From NCBI GenBank assembly GCA_031421835.1, contig JANOPL010000038.1:1972-65971 (forward strand): a DNA stretch of 64,000 nt, in the 5' to 3' direction. This document shows, one piece after another, positions 60,034 through 60,453 of the stretch. Position 1 is the stretch's first letter. The number at the start of each line of letters is the position of its first letter. The notes under the pieces are model-generated. The model was given only the letters and a program-made list of their open reading frames with translations, ran no database searches and had not been told where the DNA came from. Source of the stretch: Hyphomicrobiales bacterium. Its GTDB lineage: Bacteria; Pseudomonadota; Alphaproteobacteria; Rhizobiales; Aestuariivirgaceae. Position numbers and translations under genes: made by a program.

Positions 60034-60453
60034 TCACCTGCCGCAGCCAAACAACATCGCGCTACCCAACTTTTCTTCTTTGTCAGCCTTCTCCGTTGGG
60101 GAGAGGTTGTCGTAATAGTCTTGTTTCCATTCCGCCCACGTGGTTCTTCCGCCAACGCCTTCAGTTTCGGGCGTTGGAACGCTTATCCAGACCAGTCGCG
60201 TATTGGCGTCAAGGTCAGAGTCAAACACCACATCGAATTCAATGGTTTTGCCGCTGCGCCCGGTGTCTTCAAGATCCAGTATCTGGCTCAGGGATGCGAT
60301 AAGTGCACGTCGATCAATTTCGGGATTTTTGGGATTATTCTTGTAGGCCAGGTCCCATGCATTGAAAATGGCTTTGCCGATCAGCCTGTTGCCTTCTCTG
60401 ATACGCTCTTCGTCTCTGTCGTCTCTGACGTTTCTCAGCTTAATTCTGGCCAT
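60034..60453 (-). CDS. Hypothetical 139-aa protein; candidate NHLP-like RiPP precursor
   Basis: The CDS is supported by a strong GAGGAG RBS and lies 24 nt after the protease stop. The precursor role is inference from the leader resemblance and the C-terminal GSAMLFGCGR. Confidence 0.7.
   Translation of the reverse strand: MARIKLRNVRDDRDEERIREGNRLIGKAIFNAWDLAYKNNPKNPEIDRRALIASLSQILDLEDTGRSGKTIEFDVVFDSDLDANTRLVWISVPTPETEGVGGRTTWAEWKQDYYDNLSPTEKADKEEKLGSAMLFGCGR

Follow-up and report, generated by a model that had tools for sequence, protein, structure and literature searches.

What does the 139-codon reading frame near one end of our window, the whole 64,000-nt stretch of DNA that we analysed, encode? 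From the sequence alone, the original prediction proposed a nitrile-hydratase-like (NHLP) long-leader protein ending in a short Ser/Cys core, that is, a new small-core RiPP or scaffold peptide. We first asked whether the gene is genuine. An ATG-started ORF occupies the predicted interval exactly and is preceded, 8 nt upstream of the ATG, by a Shine-Dalgarno site located in the 24-nt spacer after the stop codon of the preceding protease gene, which indicates an operon. The motifs underlying the prediction are present: GKAIFNAWD corresponds to residues 26-34, FDVVFDSD...TRLVWISVPTP to residues 73-95, the protein ends in GSAMLFGCGR, and Cys137 is its only cysteine. The ORF is not a chance frame, as it has 18 close homologues (45-93% identity), 27 representatives at 50% clustering among 1.8 billion proteins and 73 clusters in a profile search. 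The observation is therefore confirmed, with one detail overstated: Ser131, described as Gly-flanked like the Cys, has Gly on one side only, and its alignment column is variable (A, V, S, E, T). Only the Cys is a conserved candidate site, and heterocyclisation of the Ser is unsupported. Coordinates of all features are collected below.

Table. Features of the window and of related loci (numbered L001 onwards; coordinates are those of each locus).
Sequence	Coordinates	Strand	Feature	Size
Window	60034-60453	-	FGCG[RK]-tail protein gene, candidate YcaO substrate or precursor	139 aa
Window	60037-60069	-	Codons for the conserved tail LGSAMLFGCGR (residues 129-139), proposed modification and processing site	11 codons
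Window	60043-60045	-	Cys137 codon	
Window	60462-60467	-	Shine-Dalgarno GAGGAG	
Window	60478-61437	-	S1-like (chymotrypsin-fold) serine protease, immediately upstream in the same operon	319 aa
Window	58810-60030	+	Stand-alone YcaO cyclodehydratase, convergent with the small gene	406 aa
Window	60028-60036		Region of the two convergent stop codons, 3 nt apart	
Window	59183-59196		FNR-type palindrome TTGATGAGGATCAA inside the YcaO coding sequence	
Window	56954-58735	-	Class-III cyclase-homology domain plus TPR (CHD-TPR) protein, divergent from the YcaO gene	593 aa
Window	61698-61713		Crp-box-like palindrome TGTGCTGTAGATCACA, 261 nt upstream of the protease start codon	
Window	61723-62094	+	ORF between the protease operon and the Crp gene	123 codons
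Window	62242-62916	+	Crp/FNR-type regulator, divergent from the protease operon	
Window	62952-63998	-	Gly/Asp-rich repeat protein, runs off the window end	
L001	4537-6195		Orthologue of the Gly/Asp-rich repeat protein	
L001	18574-20390		MNIO (MbnB/TglH/ChrH), HvfC_N and DoxX gene set	
L037	6932-7981		S1-like protease with insertion	
L042	2940-3989		S1-like protease with insertion	
L038	4504-5220		Protein with sub-threshold Prok-JAB match	238 aa
L068	8329-8580		ORF antisense to the small-protein gene	83-86 aa (range over L068, L069 and L070)
L069	5296-5556		ORF antisense to the small-protein gene	83-86 aa (same range)
L070	5178-5429		ORF antisense to the small-protein gene	83-86 aa (same range)
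L082/L083 (Mesorhizobium)	14700-16200 and 1600-5200		Surroundings of the cassette (phage-integrase fragments; second cyclase)	

Next, we examined the family. About 94 relatives are known, all annotated as hypothetical or left unnamed, some of them from cultured Rhizobium and Mesorhizobium. They form two subfamilies of about 130 and about 105 aa that are clearly homologous to each other (hhalign probability 98.6%, E 5e-16). Subfamily 1 (117-146 aa), which includes the window's protein, carries IGKxIxxAW, DVVFDxDLDxxTRLVWIxIPTP and a C-terminal LGxAVLFGCGR, while subfamily 2 carries MARARxR..ILAEWYRVLP..PIKIVVPLPP..GMGxAxxFGCG[KR]. Over 94 sequences the last eleven residues read [ML]-G-x-A-[VLM]-[LIV]-F-G-C-G-[RK] (the fifth position being x in the looser form), with Phe in 93 of 94, the following Gly in 91 of 94, Cys in 94 of 94, the next Gly in 94 of 94 and Arg/Lys counted in 93 of 94 (a basic last residue in 94 of 94). 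This holds down to about 25% identity and the motif is always the extreme C-terminus. Conservation of the last residues had been set beforehand as a test of the small-core idea, and the result is strongly in its favour. Structure prediction with AlphaFold on a 42-sequence alignment (pLDDT 82.6) gave a helical body (helices 15-39, 48-56, 106-115 and 119-133) and an exposed, disordered tail, residues 136-139 having pLDDT below 50. An earlier, shallower model (pLDDT 73) added two short strands at 73-76 and 88-91, and the two models disagree over residues 60-105.

Family scans of the small protein against Pfam, NCBIfam and PADLOC gave nothing meaningful, the only hit being a sub-threshold XDP2 match. 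Single-sequence and profile searches of the PDB returned only noise, such as gp41 and glyoxalase at E >= 0.015, and a search for related loci with one family alignment found only 3 loci. An anti-phage defence reading was rejected, as there are only weak domain-level similarities to PycC and to cNMP-binding domains. Literature searches for the cassette, the TIGR accessions and the tail motif found nothing relevant, and no paper in the library searched describes the family or its tail.

We then asked whether the protein belongs to the NHLP family. The TIGR03793 model (cut-off 50.9 bits) has no match in the protein's own genome even at E <= 10, and NCBIfam scans of 19 members returned no NHLP-clan model, including TIGR03793, TIGR04509 and the Os17 clan; Pfam does not match either. 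An HMM that we built from 60 NHLP/nitrile-hydratase-alpha domains, recovered from genomes of the same class, scores 2.6 bits or less on every family member with all HMMER filters off. Foldseek against the PDB, which holds many nitrile hydratases, returned nothing with E below 1 for either of the two AlphaFold models, which themselves disagree over residues 60-105. Profile-profile comparison leaves a weak signal: the merged family aligns colinearly with 78-80 columns of the NHLP domain, pairing the AW helix with the AW helix and RLVWI.IPTP / IKIVVPLPP with hlVLP, at hhalign scores of 22.3-23.6 (P about 1e-3, probability 16-22%). The reversed profile scores 10.7 and 100 block-shuffled decoys score 12.6 +/- 2.1 (maximum 19.2) and 13.8 +/- 2.0 (maximum 21.5), so that 0 of 100 decoys reach the real score. 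Subfamily 1 alone reproduces the signal (19.9 against 11.3 +/- 1.8), but subfamily 2 alone does not exceed its decoys (19.2 against 16.7 +/- 2.9, maximum 24.8). The order helix-helix-strand-strand also matches in the shallower model, and the next-closest YcaOs in the class are fused cyclodehydratases that sit beside bona fide NHLP precursors. At the nitrile hydratase loci L009-L029 and at L012, the NHLP model matches twice within nitrile hydratase alpha subunits and within a 179-aa tandem-NHLP protein, so that the NHLP unit appears to be an internally duplicated module in those proteins. A truly NHLP-derived, highly diverged leader fused to a minimal core, maturing into a secreted TOMM-type product, thus remains possible but doubtful; it would overlap with the reading that we favour below on the chemistry. 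Against it stand the failure of the defining HMM test, the absence of a conserved GG or GA ahead of the tail, the absence of a conserved C39 or ABC exporter or a dehydrogenase in the cassettes, and a core that is invariant rather than variable. Kinship to NHLP leaders is not established.

The genomic context proved decisive. The small gene is the second gene of its operon, downstream of a protease with an N-terminal domain of about 90 aa and no signal peptide. This protease has only weak Peptidase_S64, Trypsin_2 and Trypsin matches, and a profile of its orthologues found no hits in the PDB, but His147, Asp182 and Ser262 (in GDSG) are invariant in 8 orthologues. On the other side lie the YcaO gene, which the original prediction did not mention, and the CHD-TPR gene. 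No terminator-like hairpin lies between the convergent YcaO and small genes, so the two transcripts must overlap or read into each other and antisense interference is possible. The same arrangement recurs with different flanks in L001, L002, L004 and L036, in L038 (42% identity) with an added GNAT gene also seen in L001, and in L041 (37% identity) with a 134-aa ORF of no known family between the small gene and the YcaO. The protease is adjacent to the small gene in all subfamily-1 loci and the CHD-TPR gene is next to the YcaO in all cassettes. In L038 the protein directly upstream of the protease gene has a sub-threshold deubiquitinase-like match (E 0.004). In L001 a bufferin- or Hvf-type gene set lies about 8 kb away and appears unrelated to the cassette.

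Two loci depart from this arrangement. In the genome of L037 only the protease and the small gene are linked, and the CHD-TPR/YcaO/GNAT unit, 60% and 48% identical to the window's proteins, lies on another contig (L049), so that the pairs are separated but both present. L042 shows protease plus small gene with no YcaO or CHD-TPR gene within 12 kb, and a DUF3095 protein is encoded divergently. In both loci the protease carries an insertion between its N-terminal and catalytic domains containing a twin-arginine-like hydrophobic segment (TRRAAIGSGLAALASFYAL). These loci would equally fit a protease-centred function, in which the small protein is not a substrate but an in-trans chaperone, inhibitor or adaptor whose tail occupies the protease active site or the TPR groove in a product-like manner, the YcaO acting on something else or only tuning this interaction. 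In subfamily 1 the small gene always follows the protease gene in one operon, the protein has a confidently predicted helical body, and an invariant extreme C-terminus is typical of ligands for TPR carboxylate clamps or protease active sites. However, in subfamily 2 (L067-L070 and the Mesorhizobium loci L082 and L083) the cassette consists of an S8 subtilisin, a YcaO, the small protein and a CHD-TPR protein. The protease has therefore been replaced by an unrelated one carrying a signal peptide, while the tail, the YcaO and the CHD-TPR protein persist; a protease function is what is conserved, and a tail co-evolved with one active site is unlikely. Moreover, the invariant residue is a Cys preceded by Gly, the classic YcaO site, and co-occurrence with the YcaO clade is exact in the genomes sampled. 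We consider this alternative unlikely. In L068, L069 and L070 a called ORF with no Pfam hit lies immediately downstream of the small-protein gene, on the opposite strand, and may be a fifth component.

To assess co-occurrence, we sampled 401 genomes of the class. The family occurs in exactly two, the source genome of the window and one other, and these are the two genomes with the best stand-alone hits for this YcaO clade. Within the genus, only 2 of 37 genomes carry the family, so it is an accessory, probably mobile cassette. Consistent with mobility and with a cyclic-nucleotide-rich neighbourhood, the cassette of cultured Mesorhizobium lies about 3-4 kb from phage-integrase fragments and beside a second, larger cyclase, AAA_16 and TPR (STAND-type) protein. 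A role of the tail cysteine unrelated to the YcaO, for example in metal binding, as a redox or acyl carrier or as a lipidation-like signal, with the neighbourhood reflecting co-regulation only, could draw on the single invariant Cys in a flexible tail and on the Asp-rich conserved loop DVVFDSDLD of the body. It does not explain the strict genomic coupling to a YcaO and a protease across two subfamilies, including in unlinked arrangements, and we regard it as very unlikely.

The YcaO matches PF02624 over the full model (9e-54) and the SagD-type TIGR03604 at 4e-51, although with 174 bits against a cut-off of 219. It aligns with the YcaO domains of the cyanobactin heterocyclases LynD, TruD and MusD (E 2e-49, for LynD, to 8e-42) up to the C-terminal NP.P motif, whereas the thioamide-forming archaeal YcaOs (PDB 6CI7, 6PE3) reach only about 1e-7. 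It is thus of the azoline-forming type. Its alignment to LynD starts at LynD residue 403, so that the 400-residue E1-like/RRE leader-binding half is lacking, and no gene of the cassette carries an E1-like, Ocin-ThiF-like or RRE domain. The genome, 99% complete, has no SagB-type FMN dehydrogenase (TIGR03605), an optional feature needed for azoles, and no TfuA (PF07812); azole formation and thioamidation were accordingly rejected as defaults, and the default prediction is a thiazoline.

The CHD-TPR protein matches TPR families and, weakly, Guanylate_cyc and TIGR04510. Both metal-binding Asp and the transition-state Asn and Arg are conserved in all 11 orthologues, while the purine-specifying Lys is replaced by Gln, Gly or Ser, suggesting, from sequence alone, a protein that is probably active as a cyclase. 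The Crp/FNR-type regulator (cNMP-binding domain plus HTH_Crp_2) is conserved beside the cassette in L001 and L002 but not in all loci. Crp-like boxes with 1 mismatch or fewer lie upstream of the operon in L001, L002, L004 and L041, and probably L038, that is, 5 observed against 0.19 expected from the background rate in 188 kb (Poisson P about 2e-6). The ORF starting 10 nt after the window's box, in the 800-bp intergenic region, has an internal Met followed by a hydrophobic, signal-peptide-like stretch (MFSAAFALLTASSP...), and small called genes occupy this position in L001 and L002 as well. The palindrome inside the YcaO gene is one of only two perfect FNR-type matches in the 64 kb. The Gly/Asp-rich repeat protein next to the regulator looks RTX- or hemolysin-type by eye; an orthologue with 69% identity sits beside the Crp gene in L001 but not in L002, and it may be a regulated target of the module.

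Taken together, the most economical reading, in which we place moderate confidence, is that the small protein is the dedicated substrate, a protein-sized precursor, of a conserved four-gene module. In this view the YcaO would use ATP to cyclodehydrate the Gly136-Cys137 pair of the exposed tail to a thiazoline, and the co-operonic serine protease would then process the modified protein, one possibility being a cut after the nearly invariant Phe135 that releases a thiazoline-containing GCG(R/K) tetrapeptide. The cyclase-homology/TPR protein would make a cNMP, and a Crp-type regulator would act on the conserved TGTGA-N6-TCACA box upstream of the protease-precursor operon. TPR folds commonly grip extreme C-termini, and the TPR domain may bind the tail either as a sensor or as the missing docking partner of the YcaO. 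What our analysis demonstrates is the genes, their catalytic motifs, the invariance of the tail, the co-occurrence and the enrichment of the Crp box; that the protein is a substrate, that it is modified and proteolytically released, the chemistry, the cleavage site and the direction of signalling are inferred without biochemical evidence. Several features count against the model: the YcaO has no recognisable leader-binding partner in the cassette, an invariant core is atypical of antimicrobial RiPPs, no exporter is conserved in the cassette, and in subfamily 2 the S8 protease has a signal peptide while the small protein has none. The invariant core and the lack of an exporter argue for a signal or cofactor-like product rather than an antibiotic. 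The original interpretation is thus partly supported: a protein-like leader with a very short, probably heterocyclised Cys core is strengthened by context that it did not cite, whereas NHLP membership and the Ser site are not supported.

A more speculative possibility, which we consider unlikely but not excluded, is that the cassette is a self-contained intracellular or autocrine signalling loop, in which the released thiazoline tetrapeptide, or the free modified C-terminus, is read by the TPR domain of the cyclase, whose cNMP output, of non-canonical base specificity given the replaced Lys, feeds back through the Crp-type regulator onto the operon. This would be a RiPP used as a second-messenger trigger or cofactor rather than as an antibiotic, and it could also explain the related uncharacterised cyclase/TPR-linked peptide cassettes (TIGR04509-04511). 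More generally, our analysis defines an unnamed candidate precursor family and a compact YcaO, protease and cyclase/TPR cassette in Alphaproteobacteria, including cultured Mesorhizobium and Rhizobium. If the favoured model holds, it would provide the first substrate for a stand-alone LynD-type YcaO working without an RRE or E1 partner, a RiPP-like product with an invariant core, and a testable link between ribosomal peptide modification and cyclic-nucleotide/Crp signalling that may also explain the long-unexplained peptide modification system cyclase families in NCBIfam.

In enzymology, the closest known systems are the cyanobactin heterocyclases LynD, TruD and MusD (PDB 4V1T, 4BS9, 7U58) with their PatE-type precursors, which share the clearly homologous YcaO domain and the predicted Cys-to-thiazoline cyclodehydration of a ribosomal substrate followed by serine-protease processing, by the subtilisin-like PatA/PatG in cyanobactins. 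Here, however, the E1-like/RRE half is missing, the proposed substrate is a folded protein of 105-139 aa with a single invariant site at its extreme C-terminus, there are no recognition sequences, no macrocyclase and no variable core, and a cyclase/TPR protein is an obligatory neighbour. NHLP/proteusin-type precursors (TIGR03793) likewise have a long, structured, protein-like leader ahead of a C-terminal modified segment and are associated with RiPP maturases, with the weak colinear profile similarity, no fold match found, and the differences in HMM match, Gly-Gly site, C39 exporter and core described above. In architecture, the closest system is the NCBIfam putative peptide modification trio of TIGR04509 (NHLP-related peptide), TIGR04510 (cyclase) and TIGR04511 (SagB-related dehydrogenase), to our knowledge itself uncharacterised, whose design of a protein of about 100 aa, one TOMM-type maturase and a large cyclase-homology/TPR protein in one cassette we verified in locus L055. 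The maturase here is a YcaO, the peptide families are unrelated in sequence, the small protein has no TIGR04509 match, the CHD-TPR protein scores 20.6 bits (E 1.4e-4) against the 400-bit cut-off of TIGR04510, and a protease is an added core component. In logic, the closest are conserved-tail scaffold precursors such as mycofactocin MftA with its peptidase MftE, PqqA and TglA-type scaffold peptides, in which an invariant C-terminal few residues are modified and then released by a dedicated peptidase, giving one defined small molecule rather than a variable antibiotic; their enzymology is different (radical SAM or PEARL versus YcaO), the precursors are much shorter, and there is no cyclase/TPR component.
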